Of a DNA stretch of 50,822 nucleotides, positions 1-45,866 are shown one piece after another; position 1 is the first letter of the stretch; every line of letters starts with the position of its first letter. Where the stretch lies: positions 2,458-53,279 of the forward strand of contig JANWZJ010000005.1 of the NCBI GenBank assembly GCA_025054525.1. Direction: 5' to 3'. The notes beneath the pieces were generated by a model. That model worked only from the letters and a program-made list of their open reading frames with translations, was not told where the DNA came from and ran no database searches. The DNA comes from Bacteroidia bacterium. GTDB taxonomy: Bacteria > Bacteroidota > Bacteroidia > SpSt-205. Made by a program: the position numbers and the translations under genes.

Positions 1-290
1 CGGCGCGGCGACCCATCCGAAGCGTAGCCTATGACCTGAGGAGCCTTTCGCTTCTCTATAGTGATGCAGTTTACGGGGCATGCGCGAGCACACAAGTCGC
101 ATCCGATACAGTCTTCTATGGCGACATGAAGGCGATAATGTCCATTTTCGGGCACAGAGGGCTGTACATGCGGGTAGGCCAGCGTAACCGTCCCCGCAAT
201 AGCATACTGAGAAGGGTGGCGCTTGCGAAGCCGAAACGCTCCTACTAAATGCCTAAGGGCAAGCCATAGCCCCCGCCACAAACTACGCAT
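1..290 (-). CDS. nuoI: NADH-quinone oxidoreductase subunit I (4Fe-4S); runs off window edge, not in ORF track
   Basis: Manual translation from ATG at 290: [15 protein letters not shown]...VTLAYPH...[29 protein letters not shown]. CxxCxxCxxxCP motif in a NuoI-like context. Confidence 0.85.
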
Positions 291-294
291 GCTT

Positions 295-302
295 CAAAGA
301 TA
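295..302 (-). promoter_or_regulatory. Bacteroidota -7 promoter element (nuoI)
   Basis: TATCTTTG, 4 nt before ATG. Confidence 0.8.
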
Positions 303-303
303 G

Positions 304-311
304 TATCTTTG
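304..311 (+). promoter_or_regulatory. -7 promoter element (guaB)
   Basis: TATCTTTG, 3 nt before ATG at 315. Confidence 0.75.
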
Positions 312-314
312 CTT

Positions 315-1772
315 ATGCAGCGGGAGTTTCCCCTGTACCTCACTTATGACGATGTGCTATTACTCCCTGCTTATTCGGAGATACTGCCGGAGGAGACGGA
401 TGTTCGCACGCAGCTCACACCTACCCTTAGCCTGAATATACCTATTCTGAGCGCAGCGATGGACACCGTAACCGAGTATCAAATGGCGATAGCCATAGCC
501 AGTGAGGGTGGCATAGGCATTCTCCATCGCAATCTCTCCATATCCGAGCAAGCGGAACAAGTACGCAAGGTCAAGCGCTATGAAAGCGGACTTATCATAG
601 ACCCGATTACGCTCCCCCCTGATGCTCCAGTGAAAGAAGCCTTCCAACTTATGGCAGAACACCGCATAGGAGGCATTCCCATAGTAGATAAGGCACATAA
701 GCTGGTAGGCATTCTTACCAATAGAGATATCCGATTTGTAGCGACAGATAATACTCCCGTATCGGCTTATATGACACCGATGCCTTTGATTACGGCGCCA
801 GAGCACACGACTTTAGACCAAGCAGAGGAGATTCTACGCAGACACCGCATAGAAAAGCTACCTCTGGTAGATAAGGAAAATCGCTTAGTGGGACTGATTA
901 CCTACAAGGACATCTTGCGGAAGCGTACCTATCCTAATGCCTGTAAAGACGAGTTGGGACGCTTACGGGTGGGAGGGGCGATAGGTACAGGTGAAGAAGC
1001 TCTGGTTCGGGCAGAAGCCTTGGTCAAAGCAGGTGTAGACCTACTTGTGATAGACACAGCCCATGGGCATAGCCGCAGGGTTATAGAAACCCTCACCGAA
1101 CTCAAAGAGCGCTATCCCCATGTGCCAGTTATGGCAGGTAATATCGCCACAGCCGAAGCAGCCGAAGACTTGATTCGGGCCGGCGCCGATATTATCAAGG
1201 TAGGAGTTGGACCTGGAAGCATCTGTACTACCCGCATCGTTACAGGCGTAGGCGTGCCTCAGCTTTCGGCTATTTTAGCGGTAGCGCCCATTACCCAAAA
1301 GGCAGGGGTAGGCTTAGTAGCCGATGGAGGAGTCCGCTACAGCGGCGACATCACGAAGGCGCTCGCAGCAGGGGCCAACGCCGTCATGCTCGGCAGTCTC
1401 TTAGCCGGTACGGAAGAAAGCCCAGGGGAAACCTTACTCTATGAGGGACGCAAGTTCAAAGTATATCGGGGCATGGGTTCGCTGGAAGCCATGCAAGCTG
1501 GAAGCGCGGACCGCTACGGACATAAGAAAAGCGCCCCTACCAAATTTGTTCCAGAGGGGGTGGTAGGACGGGTTCCGTATCGGGGCCTCGTGCGAGAAGT
1601 CCTTCATCAACTGGTAGGCGGCTTACGAGCGGGGATGGGTTACTGCGGCGCAGCCAACCTCCCAGAACTGAGGCAAGCTCAATTCATTCGCATTACCCAT
1701 GCCAGCCTTACGGAAAGCCATCCGCATAGCTTAGAAATCATCAAAGAGGCACCGAACTACTCTATTAAGTGA
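315..1772 (+). CDS. guaB: IMP dehydrogenase
   Basis: [22 protein letters not shown] pair, catalytic [18 protein letters not shown] 315 preferred over TTG 309, which lies inside the promoter box. Confidence 0.97.
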
Positions 1773-3778: not shown

Positions 3779-3786
3779 TATCTTTG
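3779..3786 (+). promoter_or_regulatory. -7 promoter element (STAS gene)
   Basis: TATCTTTG, 4 nt before ATG. Confidence 0.8.
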
Positions 3787-3790
3787 TTCT

Positions 3791-4108
3791 ATGCAGGTAG
3801 AAGTCCAGCCTGGCATGAATGGACACTTCACCGTGAAACTATCGGGTGAGCTGGATGCCCTAACAGCACCCCGCCTCTACGAGAAACTCACTCAGCTCGT
3901 CCAACAAAACCCAGGTATTCAAAAAATCACCCTGCACTGCAGCGGACTAACTTACCTCTCTAGCGCAGGCGCGGGGATTCTTCTCATGTCTATGGACAAC
4001 TTCACCCCTAAGGGCATCTCCTTAGAACTAACCCAAGTCCAACCCGAAGTGTATAATGTGCTGGACATGCTGGGGCTCACCAAGCTCATGACTATCACCC
4101 ATGCCTAA
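3791..4108 (+). CDS. STAS-domain anti-sigma-factor antagonist (RsbV/SpoIIAA-like)
   Basis: LSGELDALTAP, YLSSAG phosphoacceptor loop, VLDMLGL; 105 aa. Confidence 0.9.
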   Translation: MQVEVQPGMNGHFTVKLSGELDALTAPRLYEKLTQLVQQNPGIQKITLHCSGLTYLSSAGAGILLMSMDNFTPKGISLELTQVQPEVYNVLDMLGLTKLMTITHA

Positions 4109-6498: not shown

Positions 6499-8031
6499 GT
6501 TCCACGGAGAGCCAGCCTTATCGTTTGTGCCAGAAGCTCTGGCACCCCCAAAGGGCTGTTGATTCACTACAGCACCGGTGGGCTTATCATTTACGTAGAT
6601 ATTTCCTGCGGCATAGCGAAGTTCATCTAAGGCTTTTGCGATGACTGCTCTATCCTGTGCCCAAATCGCCCCTGTCAGCCCATAGGGCGATGTCTCATCC
6701 AGGAGGCGCAGCGATTCTTCCCACTGGTCATCGGGGTAGATATACACTGTCAGCACAGGACCGAAGATTTCTTCTTGCATAAGGCGATGCTTGGGGTCCT
6801 TCGTAACGAAAAGCGTAGGCTGGATAAAGTAGCCGACGCTGTCATCGTACCCCCCTCCTTCTAAGAGCGTAATAGCAGGGTCATGCTTGCCTAACTCTAT
6901 GTAGGAAACAATCTTGTCAAAGGAACCCTTATCAATCACGGCAGTAATGAAGTTAGAGAAGTCTTCGGGTGGTCCCATCCGAAAGTCACGCATCATTTGA
7001 ATGAGCTTGTGCAGGATTTCATCTGCACGGGAGGCAGGGAGATACGCCCGAGAAGCAGCCGAACATTTCTGCCCTTGATACTCATAAGCACCTCTTGCTA
7101 AGGCTACCGCTACGCCTTGGGCATCCGCACTATTGTGCACCCAAACAAAGTCTTTGCCCCCCGTCTCCGCTACGATACGAGGATAGTTGCGATACTTGGG
7201 GAGATTTTGAGAGATAGTTTGCCACAGCAGATTGAGCGTTTCTGTAGAACCAGTGAAATGTAGCCCCGCAAAATAAGGATGAGAAAAGGCTGCCTCTGAT
7301 AACACAGAACCTCGCACTATTACCAAGTTAATCACCCCCTCAGGCAGTCCAGCCTCTAACAGGACATCCAGGATAACCTTCGCCGAATACACTTGAGCCT
7401 CGGCGGGCTTCCATAGGACGACGTTGCCCATGAGCGCAGGGGCTGTGGGTAAGTTCCCCGCGATAGAGGCGAAGTTGAAGGGTGTGATTGCCACGATGAA
7501 GCCTTCCAGCGGACGATAATCCAATCGGTTGCGATTGAAAGCGGGACTATGAGGCTGCCAACTCATTAGCCATTCCGCATAATGCACATTAAACCGCCAG
7601 AAATCCACCAGCTCTGCAATAATATCTATCTCGGATTGGAATACATTTTTGGACTGTGCTATCATGCAGGCGGCATTTGCGTAGGCTCGGTATTTCTGAG
7701 ATAAAAGGTCAGCCGCTTTTAGGAAAATCTCTGCCCTCTGCGCAAAGCTCCAACGGCTCCAAGTACGGTGGGCTTTGAGAGCGGCGTCTATGGCTGCCTG
7801 CACTGCTTCTTTGCCTATCCGATAGCCTGTGCCTAAGGTATGGGCTTTGCGGTGGGGGGGACTGAGCCGAAAAGGCTCGCCTTCCCAAAAGCGTCCTCCT
7901 ATCCAACTGCGCACTTCCACTTGGCGTGTGTAGGCCTCATGCAGCGCTCGCTCTAATGCTGCGCGTTCAGGAGAGCCAGGCGCATGCGCCAAAACAGGCT
8001 CATTCTGCGGCATAGGGAAAAATTCGTTCAT
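6418..8031 (-). CDS. pruA: L-glutamate gamma-semialdehyde (P5C) dehydrogenase
   Basis: ALDH fold: ITPFNF, FTGST, ETGGK, YQGQKCSA, EEIFGP, GGARASGTNDKAG. Confidence 0.95.
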   Translation of the reverse strand: MNEFFPMPQNEPVLAHAPGSPERAALERALHEAYTRQVEVRSWIGGRFWEGEPFRLSPPHRKAHTLGTGYRIGKEAVQAAIDAALKAHRTWSRWSFAQRAEIFLKAADLLSQKYRAYANAACMIAQSKNVFQSEIDIIAELVDFWRFNVHYAEWLMSWQPHSPAFNRNRLDYRPLEGFIVAITPFNFASIAGNLPTAPALMGNVVLWKPAEAQVYSAKVILDVLLEAGLPEGVINLVIVRGSVLSEAAFSHPYFAGLHFTGSTETLNLLWQTISQNLPKYRNYPRIVAETGGKDFVWVHNSADAQGVAVALARGAYEYQGQKCSAASRAYLPASRADEILHKLIQMMRDFRMGPPEDFSNFITAVIDKGSFDKIVSYIELGKHDPAITLLEGGGYDDSVGYFIQPTLFVTKDPKHRLMQEEIFGPVLTVYIYPDDQWEESLRLLDETSPYGLTGAIWAQDRAVIAKALDELRYAAGNIYVNDKPTGAVVNQQPFGGARASGTNDKAGSPWNLIRWLSPRAIKENFLPPGDYRYPFMG

Positions 8032-8035
8032 GCCA

Positions 8036-8043
8036 CAAAAATA
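8036..8043 (-). promoter_or_regulatory. -7 promoter element (pruA)
   Basis: TATTTTTG, 4 nt before ATG. Confidence 0.8.
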
Positions 8044-8078
8044 ACGCTGCCTATGGACTCAGAGCTCATGGCATTAGG

Positions 8079-8086
8079 TAATTTTG
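8079..8086 (+). promoter_or_regulatory. -7 promoter element (lipoprotein)
   Basis: TAATTTTG, 7 nt before ATG 8094 (1 nt before GTG 8088). Confidence 0.65.
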
Positions 8087-8093
8087 CGTGCGT

Positions 8094-9137
8094 ATGGTGC
8101 ATAAAAGAAGTGCTTACCTCATTCTGGCTGTTTGGGGTCTCTGGGGATGCAATCCCTTTTACTCAGGGCGAGTGAAGAATTGGATTCCTGCGGAGAAAGA
8201 ACTCCCTGCAACTATCAAAAAAGTCGCGCTCATCAATCGCAGCGCTATCCCTGAGGAGGAGCGGAAACAAATTATGGATGAATACAAACGACGCGGCGTA
8301 CGGGAAGGGGCTGTACAGGGTGCGCTGACAGGCGGCTTATATGGGGCTGCGTATGGAGCAGCTACAGGGGGACTACAAGGGATATTAGATGAGCAGTGGC
8401 TCAAACGATCCCCCCAAGACGCTCTTCGCTATCTCCATGACCGTCTCAAGGAATGCGGCCGATTAGAGCCTATCATGATGGGACAAGAACTGCGCTGGAT
8501 GGGCAAATCCGATGGTTCGCTTCCTAATCCCCTTCCCTTAGACAGCATTAAGAAAATCGCTAAAGGGGCACCCGAAGCCCATGCGATTATTGCCTTAGAG
8601 ACTTTCTTGCCAGGTGGCTCTCCGCAGAAGCCCGAGATCTTAGTAGGCTTTCGCATGTACGACCCCAAAACTGCCAAAATCATAGATGAGATAACGATTA
8701 CAGGCAGCAGAGAGCGCTATTACTACGGGACTAATGTACAAGAGGTATATCGGTCAGCGGTGGAAGAATATGTGCATAGGTTTTCCGTCTGCCCCCCTGC
8801 TTATCCAGACGATGAGCGAGTAGTTCAGTTCTACGTAAAAGGTTCGCCTAATCTCCAGAAAGCCAAGACGGCTATTATTGGGCGCAACTGGAACGAGGCC
8901 ATCTCCCTCTGGGAAGCAGATGCGCGCAAGGGGAAAGGCACCGCAGCGAAGCGCGCTGCTTACAACTTAGCATTATTGTACGACTGCATGTGCGAGGTGG
9001 AAAAAGCCGATGAGTGGTACAAGCAGGCTGTAAGTAATGGGCTGGGACAAGCCCAATATGAAGAATGGGGGCGCTCCCGACGCAGCCTTTGTCAACAGCT
9101 CAACTCCCAACTGCCGCGGGAAAAACGCTCTTATTAG
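8094..9137 (+). CDS. Lipoprotein with glycine-zipper segment and C-terminal TPR
   Basis: Lipobox LWG-C; GAVQGALTGGLYGAAYGAATGG; AAYNLALLY TPR. Start is 8094 or 8088. Confidence 0.75.
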   Translation: MVHKRSAYLILAVWGLWGCNPFYSGRVKNWIPAEKELPATIKKVALINRSAIPEEERKQIMDEYKRRGVREGAVQGALTGGLYGAAYGAATGGLQGILDEQWLKRSPQDALRYLHDRLKECGRLEPIMMGQELRWMGKSDGSLPNPLPLDSIKKIAKGAPEAHAIIALETFLPGGSPQKPEILVGFRMYDPKTAKIIDEITITGSRERYYYGTNVQEVYRSAVEEYVHRFSVCPPAYPDDERVVQFYVKGSPNLQKAKTAIIGRNWNEAISLWEADARKGKGTAAKRAAYNLALLYDCMCEVEKADEWYKQAVSNGLGQAQYEEWGRSRRSLCQQLNSQLPREKRSY

Positions 9138-10269: not shown

Positions 10270-11979
10270 TTAGGAGGAAATCCAGCGAAGGATTTCAGCT
10301 TTCTGCTCGGGGTCTAACGGAGCAGGCGCATTAAGCATAAGGTCTGACCCACTGGCGGTCTTTGGAAAGGCAATTACATCGCGAAGGCTACTTCCCCCCG
10401 CCAATAGCATAATCCATCGGTCTATGCCGAAAGCACAGCCCCCGTGGGGAGGTGCCCCCCGCCCCAGCGCTTCCAGTAAAAACCCGAACTTGTCCTGCGC
10501 TTCCTCCTCAGAAAAGCCCAAGAGTCGAAAAATACGCATTTGGAGTTCAGGGGCGTGGCAGCGCAAGCTACCACTCATAATCTCATACCCATTTATCACC
10601 AGATCATAGCATAGTCCTCGCACTTTGAGGGGGGCTTGCTCTAAATACTCTAAGTCTTCTGGATGCGGATGGACAAAGGGATGATGGGCGGGAGCGAGCT
10701 TACCTTGTTCATCTTGCTCAAAGAGCGGAAAGTCTATGATCCATGCCAGCGCCCAAGGACGTTCGGGCTTGAGCCCCAAATCCTGAATCACCGCACTGCG
10801 CAGAGCCCCTAAACCTGCATGCGGTAGATTTTCGCCAGCCGCCCAGAGCCATAGTCCTTCTGCTTCCGGAGGTAGCGACTGAGCAGTGAAAAACTTTTGC
10901 AACGAAGTGCTAATCTTCTCTCCTTCCTTTTGGGCTATGCTAAGGGAGGGGATGCCATGACTTTTGGCTACCTCTTGCCATTTCTCTTGAAGTTTGCGGG
11001 AGGCTTTAGCCTGAGCCAAATGGAGCTGGAAGACGCGACGACCTTTCCAAAAAGGCACTTCTGTCTGGCTCGCCCACTCACTCACCTCCTCCCAAGCCAA
11101 GCCATAGCGCAAGTCTGGTTTGTCCGAGCCATACCGGCTCATCGCCTCTGCATACGTAAGTGTCGGTATCTCGCCTATCTCTACGCCGATAAGTTCTTGA
11201 AAGACAGCCTGCACTAAGCCCGTAAAGATGCTTAGCACTTCGGATTGCGAGACAAAACTAAGTTCGCAGTCCAACTGGGTGAATTCGGCTTGACGGTCAC
11301 CCCGATAATCCTCATCCCGGAAGCAGCGGGCGATTTGAAAGTAGCGGTCTATGCCCGCAATCATCAGAAGCTGCTTGAGGAGCTGGGGGGATTGAGGCAG
11401 GGCGTAGAAGCTGCCTGGCTTGAGCCGAGAAGGCACTAAAAAGTCGCGAGCCCCTTCGGGGGTAGAGCGAATCAGCATGGGCGTCTCTACTTCCAGAAAG
11501 CCATTTTCTCGTAGATACCGCCGCACTACCTCTAAGAACTGGGCTCTGAGTTCTAACCGCCGCTGCATGATAGGACGCCGCAAGTCTAAATACCGATACC
11601 GCAACCGAAGCTCTTCCAGTCCGTCCGTCTCATCCTCAATCAAAAAAGGCGGTACTTCACTGCGATTGAGTAGAGTCAGGGTTTCTACCTCTATTTCTAT
11701 TTCGCCCGTGGGGAGGTTGGGATTAGGGCTTTCTCGGCGGCGAACAGTACCTTCTGCTTGGATGACCCATTCTCTGCCTAAGGTGCGTAGCACTTCATAC
11801 ATAGGACTGCTTTTAGGCGCATAGAGCTGGACAATACCGCTTCTGTCCCGCAAATCCAAAAAAACAAACTGCCCCATGTCCCGCACCCTTCGCACCCATC
11901 CAGCGACTTTGACTTCACATCCTATGTGGTCTGGGCGCAAGTCCCCACATCCGTGCGTGCGATACGAGGTTCCTTTCAC
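10270..11979 (-). CDS. aspS: Aspartate--tRNA ligase
   Basis: YRTHGCG, FLDLRD, RYRYLDLRR, PEGARDF, YALPQSPQ, RCFRDED, GAPPHGG. Confidence 0.98.
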   Translation of the reverse strand: MKGTSYRTHGCGDLRPDHIGCEVKVAGWVRRVRDMGQFVFLDLRDRSGIVQLYAPKSSPMYEVLRTLGREWVIQAEGTVRRRESPNPNLPTGEIEIEVETLTLLNRSEVPPFLIEDETDGLEELRLRYRYLDLRRPIMQRRLELRAQFLEVVRRYLRENGFLEVETPMLIRSTPEGARDFLVPSRLKPGSFYALPQSPQLLKQLLMIAGIDRYFQIARCFRDEDYRGDRQAEFTQLDCELSFVSQSEVLSIFTGLVQAVFQELIGVEIGEIPTLTYAEAMSRYGSDKPDLRYGLAWEEVSEWASQTEVPFWKGRRVFQLHLAQAKASRKLQEKWQEVAKSHGIPSLSIAQKEGEKISTSLQKFFTAQSLPPEAEGLWLWAAGENLPHAGLGALRSAVIQDLGLKPERPWALAWIIDFPLFEQDEQGKLAPAHHPFVHPHPEDLEYLEQAPLKVRGLCYDLVINGYEIMSGSLRCHAPELQMRIFRLLGFSEEEAQDKFGFLLEALGRGAPPHGGCAFGIDRWIMLLAGGSSLRDVIAFPKTASGSDLMLNAPAPLDPEQKAEILRWISS

Positions 11980-11984
11980 AGCCG

Positions 11985-11992
11985 CAAAGTAA
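11985..11992 (-). promoter_or_regulatory. -7 promoter element variant (aspS)
   Basis: TTACTTTG (1 mismatch), 5 nt before GTG. Confidence 0.6.
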
Positions 11993-15948: not shown

Positions 15949-15952
15949 GAGG

Positions 15953-15960
15953 CAAAGGTA
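15953..15960 (-). promoter_or_regulatory. -7 promoter element (hydrolase-lgt-ispE operon)
   Basis: TACCTTTG, 4 nt before ATG. Confidence 0.8.
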
Positions 15961-28134: not shown

Positions 28135-28139
28135 CGCCG

Positions 28140-28147: not shown

Positions 28148-28151
28148 GCCT

Positions 28152-28159: not shown

Positions 28160-28163
28160 CCAT

Positions 28164-31438: not shown

Positions 31439-31443
31439 CCTTG

Positions 31444-31451
31444 CAAAAGTA
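31444..31451 (-). promoter_or_regulatory. -7 promoter element (ATP-grasp/esterase)
   Basis: TACTTTTG, 5 nt before ATG. Confidence 0.8.
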
Positions 31452-34054: not shown

Positions 34055-34059
34055 TAGGG

Positions 34060-34067
34060 CAATATTA
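34060..34067 (-). promoter_or_regulatory. -7 promoter element variant (sucC)
   Basis: TAATATTG (1 mismatch), 5 nt before ATG. Confidence 0.6.
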
Positions 34068-34088
34068 GCGAAAAATGGCGCGCTTGCT

Positions 34089-34096
34089 TACCTTTG
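34089..34096 (+). promoter_or_regulatory. -7 promoter element (E2-uvrC)
   Basis: TACCTTTG, 4 nt before ATG. Confidence 0.8.
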
Positions 34097-34100
34097 AGGT

Positions 34101-35450
34101 ATGATAGAGCTGACGCTGCCCCGGTTGGGTGAGAGCGTTACAGAAGCTCGCATTATCCGCTGGCTCAAGAAACCCGGCGACCGGGTAGAAGCAGATGAAC
34201 CTATCTTAGAGATAGCTACGGATAAAGTAGACTCCGAAGTGCCCGCTCCCGCAGCAGGCATACTTGCAGAGATTCGCGTGCAGGAAGGCCAGACTGTACC
34301 GGTAGGCACTGTTCTGGCTATTATTCAGTCTCAAGCGGAAGTCGCTACTTCTTCTGCGCCTCAAAGCATTCCCGCCGCTGCCCCCCTCTCTCCTGCTGCC
34401 TCACCCACTCTCACTAATGGCAGTTCTTCACCAGAGCGTATCCCCGCTCGCGATGGAGATAGATTTTATTCGCCTTTGGTACGCACAATCGCTCAGAAAG
34501 AAGGCGTTACGCTCCAAGAGCTCGCCACAATCCCAGGCACAGGCAGTGGGGGACGCGTCACGAAACAGGATATATTAGACTATATCGCTAAGCGGCAAGT
34601 CAGCCTACCTACTCCTCCACCCCCTGCCTCAGTTCCAGCGGCCCCAGCCGCCCCCTCCACTCCTCCTGCTTCTATCCAGGAAATCATCCAGTATCTCCAA
34701 GAGCACTTCATCCTCATACCGAAGAAGAAGTTCTCCTATGATAACGCTCAAGCTGTGGAGATGGACCGCATGCGCAAAATCATCGCCGAAAACATGGTCT
34801 ATTCTAAGCACATCGCCCCCCACGTAACGAGTTTCGTAGAAGCCGATGTAACTTCACTTGTACTCTGGCGAGAGAAAGTCAAAGATACCTTTGAGAGAAA
34901 GTATGGAGAAAAGCTCACTTATACTCATGTTTTCGTAGAGATACTGGCTCAAGTGCTGCGAGAATACCCTCAACTCAACGCTTCCGTAGAAGGAGATAGA
35001 ATATACCACAAAAAGGATATTCACTTAGGGGTGGCTGTAGCTTTACCTGACAACAACCTTATCGTACCGGTCGTGCGCCATGCAGATAGACTGAACTTAG
35101 CAGGGATAGCGGCGGCAGTAAATGATCTTTCTCGTCGTGCCCGTGCGGGTCAGCTCAAACCCGACGAAATCAGTGGAGGCACCTATACACTCTCTAATGT
35201 GGGTACGTTCGGCAGTATGATGGGGACGCCGGTGATTCTCCAGCCGCAAGTAGGCATCTTAGCTACGGGTGTAATCCGCAAAAAGCCTATCGTCTTAGAG
35301 ACCCCTACGGGCGACACTATCGCCATTCGGCATGTAATGGTGCTTTCACACTCATACGACCATAGGGTGATAGATGGAGCACTGGGAGGGGCATTTGTAC
35401 GGAGAGTGGCAGACCTTTTAGAAAGCTGGGATTTGAACCGAGCTATCTGA
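34101..35450 (+). CDS. 2-oxoacid dehydrogenase E2 dihydrolipoamide acyltransferase
   Basis: Lipoyl domain TDKVDSE, E3-binding GTGSGGRVTKQD, catalytic DHRVIDG; substrate class not resolved. Confidence 0.95.
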   Translation: MIELTLPRLGESVTEARIIRWLKKPGDRVEADEPILEIATDKVDSEVPAPAAGILAEIRVQEGQTVPVGTVLAIIQSQAEVATSSAPQSIPAAAPLSPAASPTLTNGSSSPERIPARDGDRFYSPLVRTIAQKEGVTLQELATIPGTGSGGRVTKQDILDYIAKRQVSLPTPPPPASVPAAPAAPSTPPASIQEIIQYLQEHFILIPKKKFSYDNAQAVEMDRMRKIIAENMVYSKHIAPHVTSFVEADVTSLVLWREKVKDTFERKYGEKLTYTHVFVEILAQVLREYPQLNASVEGDRIYHKKDIHLGVAVALPDNNLIVPVVRHADRLNLAGIAAAVNDLSRRARAGQLKPDEISGGTYTLSNVGTFGSMMGTPVILQPQVGILATGVIRKKPIVLETPTGDTIAIRHVMVLSHSYDHRVIDGALGGAFVRRVADLLESWDLNRAI

Positions 35451-37536: not shown

Positions 37537-37544
37537 TACCTTTG
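37537..37544 (+). promoter_or_regulatory. -7 promoter element (collagen-like lipoprotein)
   Basis: TACCTTTG, 4 nt before ATG. Confidence 0.8.
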
Positions 37545-37548
37545 TCTC

Positions 37549-38181
37549 ATGCGAAAGGTTACGGCGTTGCTAATACCTACCACTCTCCTATTCGTGTGGA
37601 GCTGCCGCGGCAAACAAGGACCTCAGGGCCCCCAAGGCCCCCAAGGTAACCCTGGGCGCGACCTCACCCGTCCTCAACAGGGATATATTGAGGGAAGAGC
37701 CCGAGGCAAGGATAATGCAGGAAATGCTTTTGATTTTACATTCAGATACAGCTATTACTTTGCTGTCCCCGGAGCCATACAAGCTCTAAGCGGGAATATA
37801 CGAGAAATCTTCTTTGAGCGGTCTGACTCGGCAGGCTTAGGTAACATTAGTATACGCTTCCGCTTCAATCCCTCCAATAATCAGACCTCCGACGTAACGA
37901 TAGAAGGGAATGCAGTTGAGCTAAGAGGTAATACCGTATCTGCGTATGCATTAGAGTATTACCTAAATGCCCCTGGGCTTCCGAGAGTCACACGAGAGAT
38001 AAGAAACGTTCGTCTCTTGGGAGACACTGCATGTACGGGTGAATTCGTATATATACGAGAAACAGGCGGCGGCATGATCCCTAATACACCCTCCAATACT
38101 CATCCTGATACAGTCTCAGGCACTTTCAATGTGAAACTTCTGCCTGTTCGCTCATATGGACGGACGGCGGGGGCTAACTGA
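37549..38181 (+). CDS. Lipoprotein with short collagen-like (G-X-Y) repeat
   Basis: Lipobox VWS-C followed by GKQGPQGPQGPQGNPGRD. Confidence 0.82.
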   Translation: MRKVTALLIPTTLLFVWSCRGKQGPQGPQGPQGNPGRDLTRPQQGYIEGRARGKDNAGNAFDFTFRYSYYFAVPGAIQALSGNIREIFFERSDSAGLGNISIRFRFNPSNNQTSDVTIEGNAVELRGNTVSAYALEYYLNAPGLPRVTREIRNVRLLGDTACTGEFVYIRETGGGMIPNTPSNTHPDTVSGTFNVKLLPVRSYGRTAGAN

Positions 38182-38648: not shown

Positions 38649-41117
38649 CTACCATTCCTCGTCATCTCCTGCAGGCCCTCCTCTTCTTCGCCGCCAGAAG
38701 TTTTCACCCATTTTCACTCGCTGATACCGCACCTGAACCCCTACCACCCGAAATGGAATACCATTCACGCTTTCTTGGTAGAAGTCCGCTGTCCGTAAGC
38801 GAGTAGTCAAGCGTAGGTATTGATAGAAGGGATTATACAGGATACCTCCGATGGACCAGCGACCTTGGGCAAAGGTCTTGCGCACGCCCAACTCCTGAAA
38901 CATAAATACTGGTCGTATGCCTTGGAGACTAATCCGAGGGGAGTTATAGTTACCTGAGAGTTCTACAAGCCAGCCCTTGGCGGGTCTCCACTGCAGCGAA
39001 CCGCGCACTTGATACTGCCAGCCGGTATTGCGCAGAAAGCGGCGACCTACATCTGCTCGCACATCTACCCAGGCCAGCTCGCCATTAGCTTGAAAGGTAA
39101 TCTTATCGCTCCAAAAAGTACGCCGATAAAAAAGATTAGCCCCGTAGAAGCCTCGTTCCCCGCTATTGAGGTAAGTCGTGTGCGTAACTCCCACAGCATC
39201 TACGAAACTATACTCCTGCACTACCCCCGTACTATACCGAGCGAAAAGGGAGATATACGGGAAAAACGAAAGTTCTACTGCGTGGGTGAGTTCGGGGTCT
39301 AAATAGGGGTTGCCATACTGGATGTTAAACGGGTCAGATGCGTCTATAAAAGGATTGAGTTCCTGTAGCCAAGGGCGCCGAATACGCTGGCTGTAGCTAA
39401 GCTGTAGGGGGAATAGTCCACGAACGCGATAACTGAATAAGAGATTGGGGAAGAGATTATGATATGTCTGGCGTATGGGGAGGGTGCCTTGCAGAAAGGC
39501 ACCTTGATTTGCGGTAAGCTCATAGCGAATCCCTCCCTTGATAAGCCAGCGGTCCTTTGCCCAAGAAAGAGAAAAATACGCAGCGGGAATAAGCTGAGCG
39601 TAGCTGAGGGTATCTTGGCGCCCTGGCACCAAAAGAAATGTCTCCGAGGAACGATCATAACGCTCGTAAAAGTACCCTGTAGCTAAACTGCGAAAGTTGA
39701 GTCGGAGTCCTGTTTCCACTTTCCAGCGCTGCTGGATAGGATGGGTGTAGTCTATTTGAACCTGACCTTCCCAGGAGGGGCCTTGATTCCGGCTGCGCTC
39801 TCGCAGGTAGAAAGTATCCGGCGAGGCAAGCTGATCCATCGTATAAAACTGCTTACGGATTTGATACCCCCCTTGTAGAGAAACTTGCAGTTCCCGTTCA
39901 GGATGCGCAGGGAATCGGTGGGTCCAGTCTATGTTAGCATTCACGCTGCGGTCTATGCTGGGAAAGCGTGCCTTGCGTACATACTCCACCCCATTCCACG
40001 AGCCGCCCTCCCATCGGACATTCAAATCATTGATGCGGTCAAAAAGTAAATCCCTGTAGCTCAGCCCCCACGAAAAGGAGTGGGCAGCATTCTTTATGAA
40101 TTCACCCGAATATGTGAGATTGGTAGAGTAGCGGCGCGGAAAAGAAGTACCTTCTTGCCAGAGTCGGGTCATGCCTAAAGGCGTCCGCTGCTCCCGCATG
40201 AAGTAGCTAAACCCTACACCCGCATATCTATACCGCCCTCCTATATTGAGCGTATGAGACCAGCGACCTACTTTGGCGCCTATGGTAGCACTTCCGTTAG
40301 CGATCTGAGTCGTGATACCGGCATTTGCGGTGAGGGAAATTCCTTCCAAACGATTGCGTTTGAGGACGATATTGAGGATGACTGCTCCTTCTGCTTCGTA
40401 TCGCGCCGATGGATTGGTAATCAGTTCTATGCGATCTATCTGGTCAGCAGGGACAGCCCGCAGTGCCTCCGCAGGATTAGAGGAGAACAAAAGCGAGGGC
40501 TTCCCATCCACATAGATGCGCACCGCCCCGCTACCGCGTACTTCTATGCGTCCCTCTAAATCTACATTCACCGTAGGGACTTTTCGCAGGACGTCCAAGG
40601 CGTCGCCTCCTTGGACCGTAGCGTCTTTGTCAGGAGTATAGACAATCTTTTCAGGCTGATATTCAATCGGATTGCGTTCAGCTTGAATCTCTACAGCTTG
40701 GAGCGTAACGCCCGTCTCGGTAAGAAAGATAGTGCCTAAGTTCAGGTCAGGACGAAGGGGAGTAGTTTCTACGATTTTTTCTGTGGGCGCATATCCCAAA
40801 GGTTGAATGTGCAACTTTAGCCGACCAATAGGCACATCTCGCAGACTAAATGCGCCTTTCTCATCGGATAAGGTACCAGTAATCAGCTTATCTCCCCGAT
40901 ACAAGGAAACAGGCACATAAGGCAAGGGCTCTTGCGAAACACTATCCTTAAGTATGCCTCGGATGGAGCCTTTCAGAATCTCTTCTTGGCGCGGGTCGGA
41001 CCTCTCGCCTCCTTCTCCTCTCCTGCGAGGCAAAAAAGGCCGTTCTCCCATGCCAGGTGGCTGTGCATATAGCCCTATAATGCACAAGCTAATGCATAAT
41101 CCGATAATCCTTCGCAC
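38649..41117 (-). CDS. TonB-dependent receptor-like outer-membrane beta-barrel with N-terminal carboxypeptidase-regulatory-like domain
   Basis: Signal peptide LYA|Q; plug DVLRKVP, IDRIELITNPSARYEAEG; YSQRIRRP, GNPYLDPE. Confidence 0.9.
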   Translation of the reverse strand: MRRIIGLCISLCIIGLYAQPPGMGERPFLPRRRGEGGERSDPRQEEILKGSIRGILKDSVSQEPLPYVPVSLYRGDKLITGTLSDEKGAFSLRDVPIGRLKLHIQPLGYAPTEKIVETTPLRPDLNLGTIFLTETGVTLQAVEIQAERNPIEYQPEKIVYTPDKDATVQGGDALDVLRKVPTVNVDLEGRIEVRGSGAVRIYVDGKPSLLFSSNPAEALRAVPADQIDRIELITNPSARYEAEGAVILNIVLKRNRLEGISLTANAGITTQIANGSATIGAKVGRWSHTLNIGGRYRYAGVGFSYFMREQRTPLGMTRLWQEGTSFPRRYSTNLTYSGEFIKNAAHSFSWGLSYRDLLFDRINDLNVRWEGGSWNGVEYVRKARFPSIDRSVNANIDWTHRFPAHPERELQVSLQGGYQIRKQFYTMDQLASPDTFYLRERSRNQGPSWEGQVQIDYTHPIQQRWKVETGLRLNFRSLATGYFYERYDRSSETFLLVPGRQDTLSYAQLIPAAYFSLSWAKDRWLIKGGIRYELTANQGAFLQGTLPIRQTYHNLFPNLLFSYRVRGLFPLQLSYSQRIRRPWLQELNPFIDASDPFNIQYGNPYLDPELTHAVELSFFPYISLFARYSTGVVQEYSFVDAVGVTHTTYLNSGERGFYGANLFYRRTFWSDKITFQANGELAWVDVRADVGRRFLRNTGWQYQVRGSLQWRPAKGWLVELSGNYNSPRISLQGIRPVFMFQELGVRKTFAQGRWSIGGILYNPFYQYLRLTTRLRTADFYQESVNGIPFRVVGVQVRYQRVKMGENFWRRRRGGPAGDDEEW

Positions 41118-41122
41118 TGGTG

Positions 41123-41130
41123 CTAATGTA
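41123..41130 (-). promoter_or_regulatory. -7 promoter element variant (OM receptor)
   Basis: TACATTAG (1 mismatch), 5 nt before GTG. Confidence 0.55.
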
Positions 41131-41183
41131 TTTAGAATTCAGAGGAAGATAGGAGGTTTAAGAGCTTATGCGCGCAGAAGCCA

Positions 41184-41191
41184 TATATTTG
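41184..41191 (+). promoter_or_regulatory. -7 promoter element (EGF lipoprotein)
   Basis: TATATTTG, 4 nt before ATG. Confidence 0.8.
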
Positions 41192-41195
41192 CTGT

Positions 41196-41717
41196 ATGCG
41201 GTATCCAGTATTGAGCTGGGGGCTTAGTCTTTTCCTGGTAGCAGTAGGCTTATCGGGCTGTGAGAAGGGTTCTTGTGAAGGAGTGGTATGTATGAATGGC
41301 GGTACTTGCCGCAACGGACGCTGCCGGTGCCCTGTGGGTTTTGAAGGAAGTCGCTGCGAAATCAAACTGACTGATCAGTGGATAGGGCAATACCAAGGCG
41401 AGGATCGCTGCATAATCTCGGGTATTATTCCTCCTTATAGCGTTTCTATTCAAGCCTCTCCTTCCTATGCAGACCTTATAGAGATAGAACGGTTTGCGAA
41501 TCTCACCTGTGAAGGAGCACCCGTCAAAGTACAAGCACAAGTCCAATCAGGCACCACCGCCCAGATTCCCCGTCAGAGCCTATGCAACCTTCGCTTCGTT
41601 ATGGAGGGGCGCGCTACTTACAATACCTCCCAGCGTTCTATCTTCATAGAATATAAGATTCATGACCGACAAAATAATGTGCAGGACTCGTGCTCCGCTA
41701 CCCTGTATAAGCGCTAA
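41196..41717 (+). CDS. Lipoprotein with EGF-like domain
   Basis: Lipobox LSG-C; CEGVVCMNGGTCRNGRCRCPVGFEGSRC. Confidence 0.88.
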   Translation: MRYPVLSWGLSLFLVAVGLSGCEKGSCEGVVCMNGGTCRNGRCRCPVGFEGSRCEIKLTDQWIGQYQGEDRCIISGIIPPYSVSIQASPSYADLIEIERFANLTCEGAPVKVQAQVQSGTTAQIPRQSLCNLRFVMEGRATYNTSQRSIFIEYKIHDRQNNVQDSCSATLYKR

Positions 41718-43681
41718 AGAATCTCTATTTCCACGCGCCTATTGTTTTGGCGTCCTTCCTCTGTCTCATTCGTATCTATGGGCCGACTCTCTCCATAGCC
41801 GACATACGAAAGACGCCCCGCCGATATTCCCCGCTGGATGAGGTACTCATACACAGATTTGGCTCTACTTTCGGAGAGGCGCTGATTGTACTCATCCGAA
41901 CCAAAACTGTCCGTATGCCCAGCAATCCTAATCTTTATGCTGGGATTCTCTATAAGAATCTGATATAGCCTTTCTAACTCTGCGCGCGACTCAGGACGCA
42001 GTGTAGCTCTATCAAAGTCAAAGAAGATATTGCGCAAGACGATAATAGTACCTGCTTTATATCGCTTAAGCCCTATGTCTTTGCGCACTTCGCGATAACC
42101 TTGGCTTTCCTCTACGATAAAGTTCTCCGAATGGAAGGCATAGTTAGGAGCCGTTACAGCGATACCATAGTTGCGTCCTGCGGGCAGAGAGATGAGATAT
42201 TTACCGCTGGCGGCATTAGAAGTAAGAACCGCTAAGGTTTCTGCTTTCGCATTATCTATGAGGGTTATGGTAGCCTCCAGCGGTTGATTATTCTCTGCAT
42301 CATAGATAATCCCTGTAAGCAGCGTAAGGTTCGGGCGGAAAGTGATGGTAGAAGGCTCAGAGGTTACATTTAGTTCATCAGTATCGGTTTTCTGCGCCAC
42401 GGGAGCCTCTTCTCGCAGCGTAGAGAAATCTATCATATAGATGTCCTTTTCCCCATAGGAATCTTCTCTTTCGCTGGCATAATAACCATGTAGGCCGCTT
42501 GCGGAGAGTACGAAGTAAATCTCATCGCCGGGGGTATTGATGGGATAGCCTAGATTCACGGGCGGTGCCCAAGAGCTATCAGGGCGCAGCTCTGTACGGA
42601 AAATATCAAACCCCCCCATGGAGCCCGGGCCATTAGAGGAGAAAAAGAGCGTTTTCCCATCGGGGTGGAAAAAGGGACCATCTTCGTCATAAGGGGTATT
42701 GACAGGAGGACCTAAGTTGATAGGTTTGCTCCAGCGCCCATTGGGCAGCCGGCGACACCAGTAAATATCCCTCCCTCCCATGCCGCCTGGTCGGTCCGAG
42801 ACGAAAAAGAGCGTGCGCTCATCAGCAGAAAGGCACACAGAAGGCTCCCAGTGTTTAGTATTGATGGGGCTGCCCATGTTTTTGGGATGCCCCCAGTTTT
42901 TGCCTTTGAGACGACTGATGAAAATATCCCCTCCATTCTCTGAGTTGAAGAGGAAGAGAGTCTGACCATCGGCAGAAAGGGCTACACAGGCATCATGAGC
43001 GGCAGTATTGAGCGGCGGACCTACATTTCGCGGGGTAGTCCAGCTCCCATCGCCTTTTTTCTCGCTGATGTATAAATCTTCATAGGGCAGACCATCAAAA
43101 GCTATGCCTCCTCCGGTACTTCCAGGCCGCCGAGAAGTGAAAAGAAGCACGCTTTCATCCGCCGAAATAACAGGAGCATAATCGGGATGGGGTGAATTCA
43201 CTGCACCGCCTAAGTTCTTAATGTCTACTTTGACTGGCTTCTCCAAGTAGCGTTCGGCACTTTTGAGGTGCTGGAGGGTGAGGGTGAGCCTATCACGAGA
43301 AGGGTCGTTAGCGGGTGTGCGTGCCAGAAGCCGCTCTACCAAGGGACGTGCTCGTTGAGGCTGTCCTATCCGCTGGAGCGCATCCGCATAGGCGGTTATG
43401 AGCTTAGGAGTGAAGTTAACCCCTATCTTTTCGGCTTTCTCAAAGTATTGGACAGCTTTGCGATTCTGCCGCAAACGCCACGCACAATAAGCGGCATTCA
43501 CAAATGCCTCGGCACTGTTAGGCGCCAGGTTGAGTGCTGCTTCGTATTCCTGCAGGGCATTCAAGTAATCCTCCATCTGCATGAGCTCTTCCCCTCGGCG
43601 CAAGTGCCGCTGTACATCCCGAGTTTGGGCTGCAGCGAGGGAGAAAGCTATAAGGAAGGTAGTTAGACGAAGTTTATACAT
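41714..43681 (-). CDS. PorE-like protein: TPR + PD40 propeller + carboxypeptidase-regulatory + OmpA_C
   Basis: TPRs; NLGxxVNS/T PD40 repeats; NIFFDFD, GHTD, LSESRA, NRRVE. Confidence 0.92.
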   Translation of the reverse strand: MYKLRLTTFLIAFSLAAAQTRDVQRHLRRGEELMQMEDYLNALQEYEAALNLAPNSAEAFVNAAYCAWRLRQNRKAVQYFEKAEKIGVNFTPKLITAYADALQRIGQPQRARPLVERLLARTPANDPSRDRLTLTLQHLKSAERYLEKPVKVDIKNLGGAVNSPHPDYAPVISADESVLLFTSRRPGSTGGGIAFDGLPYEDLYISEKKGDGSWTTPRNVGPPLNTAAHDACVALSADGQTLFLFNSENGGDIFISRLKGKNWGHPKNMGSPINTKHWEPSVCLSADERTLFFVSDRPGGMGGRDIYWCRRLPNGRWSKPINLGPPVNTPYDEDGPFFHPDGKTLFFSSNGPGSMGGFDIFRTELRPDSSWAPPVNLGYPINTPGDEIYFVLSASGLHGYYASEREDSYGEKDIYMIDFSTLREEAPVAQKTDTDELNVTSEPSTITFRPNLTLLTGIIYDAENNQPLEATITLIDNAKAETLAVLTSNAASGKYLISLPAGRNYGIAVTAPNYAFHSENFIVEESQGYREVRKDIGLKRYKAGTIIVLRNIFFDFDRATLRPESRAELERLYQILIENPSIKIRIAGHTDSFGSDEYNQRLSESRAKSVYEYLIQRGISAGRLSYVGYGESRPIDTNETEEGRQNNRRVEIEIL

Positions 43682-43685
43682 GAGA

Positions 43686-43693
43686 CAAAGATA
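43686..43693 (-). promoter_or_regulatory. -7 promoter element (PorE-like)
   Basis: TATCTTTG, 4 nt before ATG. Confidence 0.8.
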
Positions 43694-44308: not shown

Positions 44309-45426
44309 ATCATGAGCGGCATCGCCAAAAAGAGCGATTCAGAAGGAGGGGTTTGGGGCTCTGGTTCTATGACTACAGCGCGTCCCGGAGCCTCCATCCG
44401 CATGATAAACTCACTTGCTTGAATATGGTCTATCACACCGCCTAAGACACTGCCGCGAAAAGCTATCCGAAAATCAGGTCCCTCATATTCACAGGGAAGC
44501 GTCTCTTGTCCAGCGCGATTCTGGGCTACATCTTCCGCACGGAGCGTCAGGGTATTGCCCTCAAAACTTAGCCGAATAATACCTGTCGTTTTATCACTGA
44601 ATACCAAAAGACGCCGCAAAGCCCGCCGAAATCCTTCTGCCTGAATGCGTGCCACGTAGGGGGGCTTCTGCGGAATCACACTAAGATAATCAGGATAACG
44701 CGCATCAATCAAGCGGCATACCATATCCAAGAGCGGATGATGGAAAAGAGCTTGTCCTTCTGTGGGATAAAGCGTAAGGGTATCTCCTGTGGGGAAACCT
44801 TTGAGGGCTTGGCGTAGGGCTTCCAAAGCCCTCACAGGCAAAAGTAACTTAGGGGCACCACCTAACCGAATATCTTCCCGTTTCAGCCTGACAAGCGTGT
44901 GCGCATCCGTAGCCACAAAATAGGTATGCGTGTCAAAAAAGTCAAAATATACGCCTGTGAGTGCAAGCCTCGCATCATCTTTCGCAGCAGCAAAGGCGGT
45001 TTGTCCCACTACCTCTTCCAAGAGTTGTATGGGGAAACTTACTCCTTGCTGATTCTCAAGCTGGGGAAACTGCGGAAACTCTTCTGCCGGTACGCCTCCA
45101 AACTCGTATTGTCCATAGTTGGAAGTGATAGCTACCTTGAGGTCCTGCTGTTGGAAGGTAAGCACCTCATCTTCAGCAAATCCCCGCAGTAGCTCTAATA
45201 GCGGTTTGGGCAGGATAGAGAGCTGAACAGCATCACCTCCTTCGGGCACTATGGGTAATATAGTGCGCATACTAATCTCTAAGTCAGTGGCTCGCAGTTC
45301 TAACTCATCTCCTCGTTGATAAATCAGGATATTCTGAGTAATGGGGTAAATAGAACGGGTGGGGACTACCGATTGAACCCGACTAACCGCTTCTTTGAGC
45401 GCTTCGGCGCGCACACGAAAACCCAT
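44305..45426 (-). CDS. dnaN: DNA polymerase III beta sliding clamp
   Basis: ATDLEI, EEFP, LTGVY, VATDAHTL, RLIDARYPDY, LAMPL. Confidence 0.96.
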   Translation of the reverse strand: MGFRVRAEALKEAVSRVQSVVPTRSIYPITQNILIYQRGDELELRATDLEISMRTILPIVPEGGDAVQLSILPKPLLELLRGFAEDEVLTFQQQDLKVAITSNYGQYEFGGVPAEEFPQFPQLENQQGVSFPIQLLEEVVGQTAFAAAKDDARLALTGVYFDFFDTHTYFVATDAHTLVRLKREDIRLGGAPKLLLPVRALEALRQALKGFPTGDTLTLYPTEGQALFHHPLLDMVCRLIDARYPDYLSVIPQKPPYVARIQAEGFRRALRRLLVFSDKTTGIIRLSFEGNTLTLRAEDVAQNRAGQETLPCEYEGPDFRIAFRGSVLGGVIDHIQASEFIMRMEAPGRAVVIEPEPQTPPSESLFLAMPLMM

Positions 45427-45430
45427 ACAG

Positions 45431-45438
45431 CGAAGGTA
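45431..45438 (-). promoter_or_regulatory. -7 promoter element variant (dnaN)
   Basis: TACCTTCG (1 mismatch), 4 nt before ATG. Confidence 0.65.
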
Positions 45439-45475
45439 AAAACTTTTGGCCTTTCTCTCTCCACAAGTTATTATC

Positions 45476-45483
45476 TATCTTTG
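45476..45483 (+). promoter_or_regulatory. -7 promoter element (rsfS operon)
   Basis: TATCTTTG, 8 nt before ATG. Confidence 0.75.
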
Positions 45484-45491
45484 TAATAAAG

Positions 45492-45866
45492 ATGAGAGAT
45501 AGCCTGCCTCGGTCACTTTCAGGCGAAGAGCGCCTGCATCTCACGCTCCAAATTATCTCTGACAAAAAAGCTCAAAACATTGTGGGACTGGACATGCGCC
45601 ATCTCAACTATTTGCTCTGCGATTATTTCGTCGTAGCTACCACGGAGTCCGACCGACAAGCCCAAGCCATAGCCGATGCCCTCTTAGAGCAGCTCAAGGT
45701 AGTAGAAGGCAAACACTTCAGCTATCGGATGGAAGGCTACGAAACAGGCAAATGGATTCTCGTAGATATGGGAGATATTGTAGTGCATCTTCTTCAACCC
45801 GAACTGCGGGCTTACTATAGGCTGGAAGAACTATGGGGCGATGCCAAGAGTATATCATATGCCTGA
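45492..45866 (+). CDS. rsfS: Ribosome silencing factor
   Basis: DKKAQNI, DYFVVAT, WILVDMGDIVVH, YYRLEELWGDA. Confidence 0.96.
   Translation: MRDSLPRSLSGEERLHLTLQIISDKKAQNIVGLDMRHLNYLLCDYFVVATTESDRQAQAIADALLEQLKVVEGKHFSYRMEGYETGKWILVDMGDIVVHLLQPELRAYYRLEELWGDAKSISYA

Follow-up and report, generated by a model that had tools for sequence, protein, structure and literature searches.

Sigma-A −7 boxes abutting start codons suggest leaderless or near-leaderless mRNAs in a family of Bacteroidia

The stretch of DNA analysed here, referred to as the window, comprises 50,822 nt from a Bacteroidia bacterium (SpSt-205; JANWZJ010000005.1, positions 2,458–53,279, forward strand), whose assembly (G000) contains 1.80 Mb in 116 contigs with 51% GC, is rated 92% complete and has a coding density of 95%. 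The element in question is the octamer TAnnTTTG (the box), and the gap is the number of nucleotides separating the end of the box from the start codon. In G000 and in its whole family, leaderless or near-leaderless mRNAs are probably produced by means of the sigma-A −7 box, which has been drawn up against the genes.

In the proposed mechanism, RNA polymerase would start 4–5 nt past the final G of the box, so that the first transcribed base would be the start codon's A or G at a gap of 4 nt and would lie 1–4 nt upstream of that codon at gaps of 5–8 nt. Leaderless or near-leaderless mRNAs would be made from about one in three genes overall and from some 60% of those not coupled to an upstream gene, and such mRNAs would be translated via recognition of the 5′-terminal AUG or GUG. 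For most of the others, which overlap an upstream gene or follow it by 10 nt or less, translation would probably proceed by coupling or re-initiation, with no Shine–Dalgarno (SD) sequence. The geometry, its statistics, the identity of the promoter, the correctness of the start codons and the conservation of the layout in the family are documented below; from them we infer both the exact transcription start and initiation by ribosomes at the 5′ end.

Boxes before genes in the window and in the genome

The window contains 48 exact boxes, compared with 24.2 ± 4.5 in 100 shuffles (maximum 35). Boxes with at most one mismatch were collected where an ATG, GTG or TTG 2–9 nt downstream opens an open reading frame (ORF) of at least 60 aa, and those heading a real gene (taken as a long ORF preceded by few open codons) were kept; the remaining rows, mostly one-mismatch boxes deep within ORFs, were set aside as chance. 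A box at 3–8 nt precedes 23 unit-opening starts, 19 of them with an exact box and four with a one-mismatch box, and no unit-opening coding sequence without a box was found between 290 and 45494; every other gene in this interval either overlaps a co-directional upstream gene or follows one at no more than about 5 nt. The first-pass annotation, which had described a near-universal leaderless architecture, had counted 22 such starts (18 and four), a difference of one gene, with a gap of 3–5 nt in 20 of them; the gap is 3–5 nt in 21 of the 23, the exceptions being 7 nt (8094) and 8 nt (45492), as it had stated, and the three examples that it quoted (34101, 43681 and 18441) are all exact. Both tRNA genes of the window also carry a box, with a gap of 10 nt for tRNA-His and 4 nt for tRNA-Asn.

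The same geometry dominates the genome. Among the 1355 boxes of G000, an ATG that begins an ORF of 100 aa or more follows at a gap of 4 nt in 119 cases, 5 nt in 59, 6 nt in 44, 7 nt in 38, 8 nt in 29 and 3 nt in 26, compared with 0–12 cases for each gap from 9 to 60 nt. This histogram had been proposed beforehand as a check, with a missing peak named as grounds for abandoning the idea, and its peak at 4 nt is sharp. Genes (n = 1611) were called with an in-house simple ORF and hexamer-score caller, which is not a validated gene finder; 403 of them have an exact box 3–8 nt before an in-frame start, with a mode of 4 nt, whereas the same search with the reversed motif, the control used genome-wide, gave 21. 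The gap is 4 nt in 167 of the 403, 5 nt in 73, 6 nt in 54, 7 nt in 41, 8 nt in 35 and 3 nt in 33, and the start codons are ATG (307), GTG (85) and TTG (11). Genes with a divergent upstream neighbour, which must own a promoter, number 438; an exact box is present in 201 and a box with at most one mismatch in 330 (controls, 6 and 86). The spacer of the 219 divergent pairs has a median of 47 nt, and of 45 nt for the 41 pairs with an exact box on both genes.

A gene was regarded as coupled when it overlaps a co-directional upstream gene or lies at most 10 nt behind it. The 1514 genes away from contig edges, 834 of them non-coupled, were classified as follows.

Exact box at 3–8 nt: 393
Coupled to the upstream gene (overlap or at most 10 nt): 680
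One-mismatch box (about 84 expected by chance): 213
Exact box 9–150 nt upstream: 65
Nothing recognisable: 163

The box thus stands at the start codon in 47% of the 834 non-coupled genes when exact boxes are counted, and in about 63% when the excess of one-mismatch boxes is added. The term near-universal therefore holds within the window, where each unit-opening coding sequence is boxed, and has to be weakened to a clear majority for the genome.

The box is the ordinary Bacteroidota sigma-A −7 promoter element and not a translation signal, because it precedes tRNA and tmRNA genes, is nearly absent before internal genes, has the logo of such promoters and occurs where sigma-70-type promoters are at chance. 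In 22 of the 32 tRNA/tmRNA genes an exact box lies 4–14 nt upstream of the mature 5′ end. The ten exceptions comprise seven that immediately follow another tRNA, one that follows at a distance of 86 nt and two that stand alone. No exact box was found within 60 nt of the Rfam match start of the RNase P RNA. Co-directional genes at 10 nt or less have a box in only 22 of 702 cases (14 of 508 overlapping, 8 of 194 at 0–10 nt). In the logo of the 403 aligned boxes, G is present in 13% at −10 and 6% at −9, positions −20 to −16 are A/T-rich, and the region from −40 to −25, where a TTTG −33 element was looked for, has no information content. This agrees with the F. johnsoniae promoters described by Baez et al., in which G is avoided at the variable positions (TAHHTTTG), an A/T-rich motif lies near −18 and the −33 element is weak or absent. 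Matches to sigma-70-type promoters (22 versus 19.1 ± 4.4) and intrinsic-terminator-like hairpins are both about as frequent in the window as expected by chance.

The boxed starts of the window and the individual features, by coordinate and strand, are given below.

Exact box, plus-strand starts: 315, 3791, 8094, 21608, 28164, 34101, 37549, 41196, 45492
Exact box, minus-strand starts: 290, 8031, 14323, 15948, 18441, 21573, 25914, 28134, 31438, 43681
One-mismatch box, minus-strand starts: 11979, 34054, 41117, 45426
291..314, both strands: back-to-back divergent promoters with two TATCTTTG boxes
295–302, minus: box TATCTTTG, 4 nt before ATG 290; the ORF continues beyond the window edge
304–311, plus: box TATCTTTG, 3 nt before ATG 315 of guaB (315–1772)
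3779..3793, plus: box TATCTTTG, gap 4 nt, ATG 3791 of an anti-sigma-factor antagonist gene (STAS; 3791–4108)
8029..8096, both strands: divergent pair of a pruA-like dehydrogenase gene and gene 8094–9137
8036–8043, minus: box, 4 nt before ATG 8031 of the pruA-like dehydrogenase gene (6418–8031)
8079–8086, plus: box, 7 nt before ATG 8094 (8094–9137)
9222–9229, minus: box TATATTTG, 10 nt before tRNA-His (9138–9211)
11977..11992, minus: one-mismatch box TTACTTTG, gap 5 nt, GTG 11979 of aspS (10270–11979)
14321..14336, minus: box TAACTTTG, gap 5 nt, ATG 14323, heading an operon from 14323 to 12007
15946..15960, minus: box TACCTTTG, gap 4 nt, ATG 15948 of an alpha/beta hydrolase-like gene (15115–15948)
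18439..18453, minus: box TAACTTTG, gap 4 nt, GTG 18441 of purD (17173–18441)
21579–21586, minus: box, 5 nt before ATG 21573, first of a divergent pair (region 21571..21610)
21596–21603, plus: box, 4 nt before GTG 21608, second of the same pair
25912..25927, minus: box TACCTTTG, gap 5 nt, ATG 25914 of the gene for a protein sorted by the type IX secretion system (T9SS; 23098–25914)
28132..28166, both strands: divergent pair with start codons 29 nt apart
28140–28147, minus: box, 5 nt before GTG 28134 of yidC (26365–28134)
28152–28159, plus: box, 4 nt before GTG 28164
31436..31451, minus: box TACTTTTG, gap 5 nt, ATG 31438 (30275–31438)
34060–34067, minus: one-mismatch box TAATATTG, 5 nt before ATG 34054 of sucC
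34089–34096, plus: box TACCTTTG, 4 nt before ATG 34101 of a 2-oxoacid dehydrogenase E2 gene, divergent from sucC (34052..34103)
37537..37551, plus: box TACCTTTG, gap 4 nt, ATG 37549
38564–38571, plus: box TACCTTTG, 4 nt before the mature 5′ end of tRNA-Asn (38576–38648)
41123–41130, minus: one-mismatch box TACATTAG, 5 nt before GTG 41117 of a TonB-dependent receptor gene
41184–41191, plus: box TATATTTG, 4 nt before ATG 41196, divergent from the receptor gene (41115..41198)
43679..43693, minus: box TATCTTTG, gap 4 nt, ATG 43681 of a PorE/OmpA-like protein gene (41714–43681)
45431–45438, minus: one-mismatch box TACCTTCG, 4 nt before ATG 45426
45476–45483, plus: box TATCTTTG, 8 nt before ATG 45492, divergent from 45426 (45424..45494)

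Transcription starts, start codons and the translation of internal genes

In F. psychrophilum the box occupies positions −12 to −5 relative to the mapped transcription start, and in F. johnsoniae the mapped start lies 4–5 nt after the box, according to Baez et al. The modal gap of 4 nt in G000 equals the spacing mapped in these two species, which would place +1 on the start codon's first base. The base composition at this point fits the usual pyrimidine/purine context of a transcription start: the fifth base after the box is a purine in 166 of the 167 genes with a gap of 4 nt (the other has a TTG start) and still in 66–68% of the classes with gaps of 6–8 nt, where it falls outside the start codon, and the fourth base is a pyrimidine in 71% of the genes with a gap of 4 nt. 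The starts at 290 and 315 are separated by 24 nt, which just fit two boxes with their gaps; the divergent genes are too close for any other promoter arrangement. The earlier proposal that +1 coincides with the start codon, leaving hardly any 5′ untranslated region (UTR), is consistent with spacing, purine preference, N-termini and promoter identity alike, and these indirect tests together support transcription starting at the start codon or within a few nucleotides of it.

The 20 proteins of the window that begin at a box-adjacent codon were scanned against NCBIfam models, and the nine with near-full-length matches all align within 0–8 residues of model position 1. The first aligned residues and model positions are 1 to 1 for YidC (NF002356) and SucC, 1 to 2 for E2, 10 to 10 for PorE and 9 to 1 for PruA; the alignments run from residues 3–421 to model positions 2–420 for PurD (TIGR00877), 5–563 to 3–582 for AspS (NF001750), 10–103 to 11–103 for the STAS protein (TIGR00377) and 9–454 to 2–450 for GuaB (TIGR01302, 637 bits). 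In a tblastn comparison of the E2 protein with other Bacteroidia, the matches reach query residues 1–3. Judged by these alignments, the box-adjacent codons are the true N-termini, and hidden leaders arising from mis-called starts are ruled out. The first-pass annotation had revised the starts given by the ORF track for yidC, the T9SS cargo and guaB, and its revisions are borne out: residue 1 of YidC meets model position 1 only from GTG 28134, the T9SS-sorted protein, which has the TIGR04183 C-terminal sorting domain, had been started at 26049, and the TTG at 309 assigned to guaB is the TTG inside its box. Gene finders that prefer the longest ORF or seek a ribosome-binding site (RBS) mis-call such starts, and a model of the −7 box would mend them throughout the family.

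The operon-internal genes are likely to be translated by coupling or re-initiation without SD. An SD-like 4-mer is present at −18 to −4 in 47 of 450 of them, compared with 258 of 1501 control positions inside genes, and A is found at +4 in 53%, which is the signature of ATGA overlaps. The anti-SD, bS1 and bS21, which the first-pass annotation had suggested inspecting, are all retained. No 16S rRNA is assembled in G000; the 16S 3′ end in two genomes of the same genus with an assembled 16S is GGATTACCTCCTTTCT, keeping the CCUCC anti-SD. Both bS1 and bS21 are encoded in G000 and are box-adjacent, with gaps of 7 and 5 nt, respectively; rpsU, the gene for bS21 (G000:C50:66271–66540), is preceded by TAATTTTG, 5 nt and the ATG, with no SD.

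Two side observations belong to this subject. Upstream of groEL (G000:C105, upstream of 53617), the sequence ...ACAGGAGCAT-ATG contains an SD-like AGGAG at about −8 to −4, which is exceptional in a genome otherwise without SD signals. On the minus strand of the window, the 242 nt linking aspS and a metallo-beta-lactamase-fold gene (9246–10028) (region 10030–10266) appear by eye to contain a small ORF of about 80 aa. It would overlap with the stop codon of aspS and run to the GTG of the next gene, so that all three would be coupled.

Conservation in the family and starts abutting tRNA genes

The box pattern was scanned in 401 genomes from 84 families of Bacteroidia. In all 17 genomes of the family, which represent two genera, the pattern TAHHTTTGNNNNATG is present in 108–190 copies (60–88 per Mb; reversed control 0–14), whereas G017 (77% complete), which represents the order's only other family, has 35 copies compared with 27 in the control. 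The 388 other Bacteroidia, from 83 families, mostly have 15–25 matches per Mb, a density lower by a factor of roughly five, and only five genomes outside the family exceed 50 per Mb, from f41 (3 of 3) and f65 (2 of 2). Numbers of starts at gaps of 3–8 and 9–50 nt, compared among families on sequence samples, are as follows.

G000 (f1, own genome): 263 at gaps 3–8, 187 at gaps 9–50
G014 (f1, other genus): 65 at gaps 3–8, 36 at gaps 9–50
G056 (f41): 55 at gaps 3–8, 93 at gaps 9–50
G176 (f65): 9 at gaps 3–8, 55 at gaps 9–50 (151-kb sample)
G298 (f70): 7 at gaps 3–8, 23 at gaps 9–50
G038 (f23): 3 at gaps 3–8, 15 at gaps 9–50
G017 (f2): 11 at gaps 3–8, 21 at gaps 9–50

When orthologues of the box-adjacent genes of G000 were compared, 46 of 72 had a box at 3–8 nt in the other genus, compared with 1 of 18, 1 of 20, 0 of 10, 2 of 11 and 8 of 28 in other families. 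The box-adjacent layout is therefore a trait of the family and not of the phylum, shared in part by f41. The three f41 genomes (G056, G099 and G135; about 35% GC) have the highest density of box, 4 nt and ATG in the class scan (85–109 per Mb), and the histogram of G056 combines a peak at gaps of 4–5 nt with many leadered starts; f41 is thus a second and unrelated Bacteroidia family that appears to be partly leaderless. The candidacy of f65 (G176 and G208) as a second leaderless family was dropped, as G176 has 9 starts against 55 and its pattern density was put down to its 33% GC.

A further set of start codons lies directly behind tRNA genes. A long ORF (at least 100 aa) starts at −1 to +8 nt after 9 of the 24 tRNA/tmRNA genes that are last in their cluster, compared with 4.4% at random (binomial P = 4 × 10⁻⁷). 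The sample of G014 has two such cases in six, and samples from other families have none in 16. The nine junctions of G000 (contig, tRNA or tmRNA/ORF) are as follows.

C11:39068/39071
C19:3430/3429
C19:21574
C36:10798/10797
C59:4593/4588
C77:2344/2341
C83:10228/10219–10222
C94:49205/49209
C105:34539

The abutting ORFs include ligA, prs, tig, fbp, an OsmC-family gene, a cytochrome-like lipoprotein gene and a gene for an OmpA-like protein. The N-termini of LigA, Prs, Tig (trigger factor), Fbp and OsmC are confirmed by model alignment, within 0–12 residues, and others have signal-peptide-like starts as judged by eye. RNase P RNA is encoded in G000, together with an RNase Z-like homologue that scores 274 bits, below the curated 293. 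Excision of the tRNA would leave an mRNA with 0–8 nt before the start codon. Starts abutting tRNAs are hard to explain unless a 5′-proximal start codon matters.

The most elaborate case is tuf, upstream of which (G000:C19:20854–20945; L180:1355–1445, minus strand) a box is followed after about 9 nt by a 65-nt element resembling a tRNA, which stops one base short of the ATG. It has an acceptor stem and a T arm, the D arm is missing, and it is not called as a tRNA by Rfam. Its position is taken in the other genus (G014) by a true tRNA-Thr, whose end lies 4 nt ahead of the ATG, and in G017 the tRNA-Thr and tuf are separated by 22 nt. The relic was also found on two metagenome DNA contigs (L195 and L196) with a degenerate pattern for the tuf N-terminus, and in L183 and L185, and an intact tRNA is present in L184. 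In an alignment of six sequences, the acceptor stem shows compensatory changes at four of six pairs, and the distance from the discriminator to the ATG is constant at 3–4 nt.

The boxes of tRNA genes are also close, at 4–14 nt in G000 and 4–13 nt in G014 compared with 13–63 nt in G056, G298 and G038. With this spacing the tRNA precursors of G000 would have 5′ leaders of only about 0–9 nt, and the transcription start predicted for tRNA-Asn would coincide with its mature 5′ end, even though RNase P RNA is encoded.

Alternative readings and comparison with known systems

Several points weigh against leaderless or near-leaderless expression as stated above. The transcription starts are predicted from DNA, and the two metagenome contigs that were found are DNA as well. 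The gene calls and starts rest on the simple in-house caller. Genome-wide, the layout is that of a majority: 65 genes have a distant box and 163 have nothing recognisable. The sigma-A of Bacteroidota (sigma-ABfr) is a short primary sigma factor without region 1.1. The RpoD_Cterm profile found no match in the 92%-complete assembly, so that the sigma-A gene was not found in G000; in five of five relatives in the family the profile matches, at about 260 bits, a sigma-A-like gene whose open frame spans 297–307 aa. Finally, equally short tRNA 5′ leaders together with 95% coding density mean that general shrinkage of leaders, and not translational selection, could yield the geometry.

The strongest rival accepts the boxes as real promoters and supposes that the leaderless transcripts are minor or poorly translated, the protein coming from read-through, longer transcripts or downstream starts. 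Many boxed co-directional genes (104 of 172) are just 11–30 nt behind the previous gene, and the chance level of terminator-like hairpins in the window makes read-through from upstream units likely. However, genes with divergent neighbours are beyond read-through and yet are boxed most often (of 438, 201 have an exact box and 330 a box with no more than one mismatch), the N-termini fit the family models at the box-adjacent codon, the bS21 and bS1 genes share the layout and the layout is conserved between genera. We consider this reading unlikely.

Somewhat less probable still is that the geometry is a by-product of compaction, in which a deletion bias stripped dispensable mRNA and tRNA leaders while the ribosomes remained unchanged and leaderless translation was tolerated. 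The coding density, the shortening of the tRNA 5′ leaders and the retention of anti-SD, bS1 and bS21 are all as this would predict, but it leaves unexplained both the ORF starts abutting tRNA 3′ ends (9 of 24 compared with 4.4%) and the degenerate tRNA relic kept, with compensatory changes, 3–4 nt before tuf. Other small Bacteroidia genomes have no peak (e.g. G033 and G091, both of 2.0 Mb, with 10 and 18 matches, respectively). Compaction concerns the cause rather than the mechanism, and is compatible with leaderless mRNAs.

That the box is a ribosome-binding or enhancer element beside the start codon, on mRNAs beginning further upstream, would suit its short fixed distance, as for an RBS, and the reliance of Bacteroidota without SD on other upstream cues, but is very improbable given the same box before 22 of 32 untranslated tRNA/tmRNA genes, its presence in only 22 of 702 internal genes, which also need ribosomes, its identity with the sigma-A −7 element including the avoidance of G at −10 and −9, and divergent spacers of about 45 nt that leave no room for promoters upstream.

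Leaderless expression itself is already known, and what is new is the variant built on the Bacteroidota-type −7 box. Zheng et al. (2011) reported leaderless shares of 19% in Actinobacteria and 39% in Deinococcus-Thermus and named Bacteroidetes as a possible blind spot, and GeneMarkS-2 gives 25–50% for group C bacteria, a group defined by a Pribnow box; both surveys sought Pribnow-type signals. As in these bacteria, first-in-operon starts are preceded at a short and constant distance by a core promoter element, ATG and GTG both serve as putative 5′-terminal starts and many operons are affected. In contrast, the element here is a TAnnTTTG −7 box ending 4 nt before the start rather than a Pribnow box, and group C genomes use SD for their remaining genes, whereas the internal genes here are without SD.

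Bacteroidota are the textbook case of initiation that is independent of SD and yet leadered, with a sequestered anti-SD. Among the mapped species, B. thetaiotaomicron has a commonest 5′ UTR of 23 nt and only 3.7% under 10 nt, 5.5% of the mRNAs of F. psychrophilum are leaderless, Segatella copri has 35–36 leaderless transcripts, and 87% of the leaders of F. johnsoniae exceed 10 nt. The mapped Bacteroidota share with G000 the same −7 element at −12 to −5 and the lack of SD, and with the two genomes of its genus an anti-SD kept in 16S, and F. johnsoniae also lacks a clear −33 element. They differ in being leadered (3.7–13% short or no leaders), whereas most unit-opening genes here appear leaderless, which bears out the suggestion of the first-pass annotation that this is an initiation regime distinct from that of the studied Bacteroidota. 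The rpsU of F. johnsoniae and its relatives has a strong SD that is used for autoregulation, as reported in PMC10783764, whereas the rpsU of G000 is boxed and has none. Nakagawa (2017) and a paper on the P. gingivalis ribosome loosely call leaderless mRNAs frequent in Bacteroidetes, which the mapping papers contradict. Our literature search returned no report of a leaderless-dominated Bacteroidota lineage or of a −7 box abutting starts, although the GeneMarkS-2 leaderless group might list some Bacteroidetes.

Mitochondrial tRNA punctuation yields leaderless mRNAs. The junctions described above resemble it in that coding starts at or a few nucleotides from tRNA 3′ ends, and differ in that they are a minority (9 of 24 terminal tRNA/tmRNA genes, and tuf) in a free-living bacterial genome, with processing that we infer.

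A more far-reaching interpretation, which we regard as a serious possibility but hold tentatively, is that the family has moved almost wholly to 5′-end-dependent initiation, with abutting sigma-A promoters, excised tRNAs and a tRNA-derived minihelix before tuf, coupling for the rest and the loss of SD-based autoregulation of bS21. If this is true, the family would be the first leaderless-majority bacterial lineage outside Actinobacteria and Deinococcus-Thermus and would provide a bacterial counterpart of mitochondrial tRNA punctuation. A leaderless-majority sister lineage would offer a natural comparison within one ribosome type, and raises the questions of what lets a bacterial ribosome rely on 5′-terminal start codons and what becomes of leader-dependent circuits such as the rpsU SD and riboswitches. 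An Rfam scan of the window (1–50822) found only two tRNAs reaching the gathering score and no riboswitch or other family; in G000 one would expect few regulators that are carried on leaders.

A last question is whether leaderless expression is linked to thermophily, as hinted by how common it is in Thermus, Aquificae and archaea. G000 has an IVYWREL fraction of 0.44 and G014 one of 0.43, compared with 0.35–0.41 in five other Bacteroidia, the sister family (G017) being intermediate at 0.41. The predicted proteome of G000 is thus thermophile-like, and its value would correspond to about 70–75 °C by a regression of temperature on this fraction.

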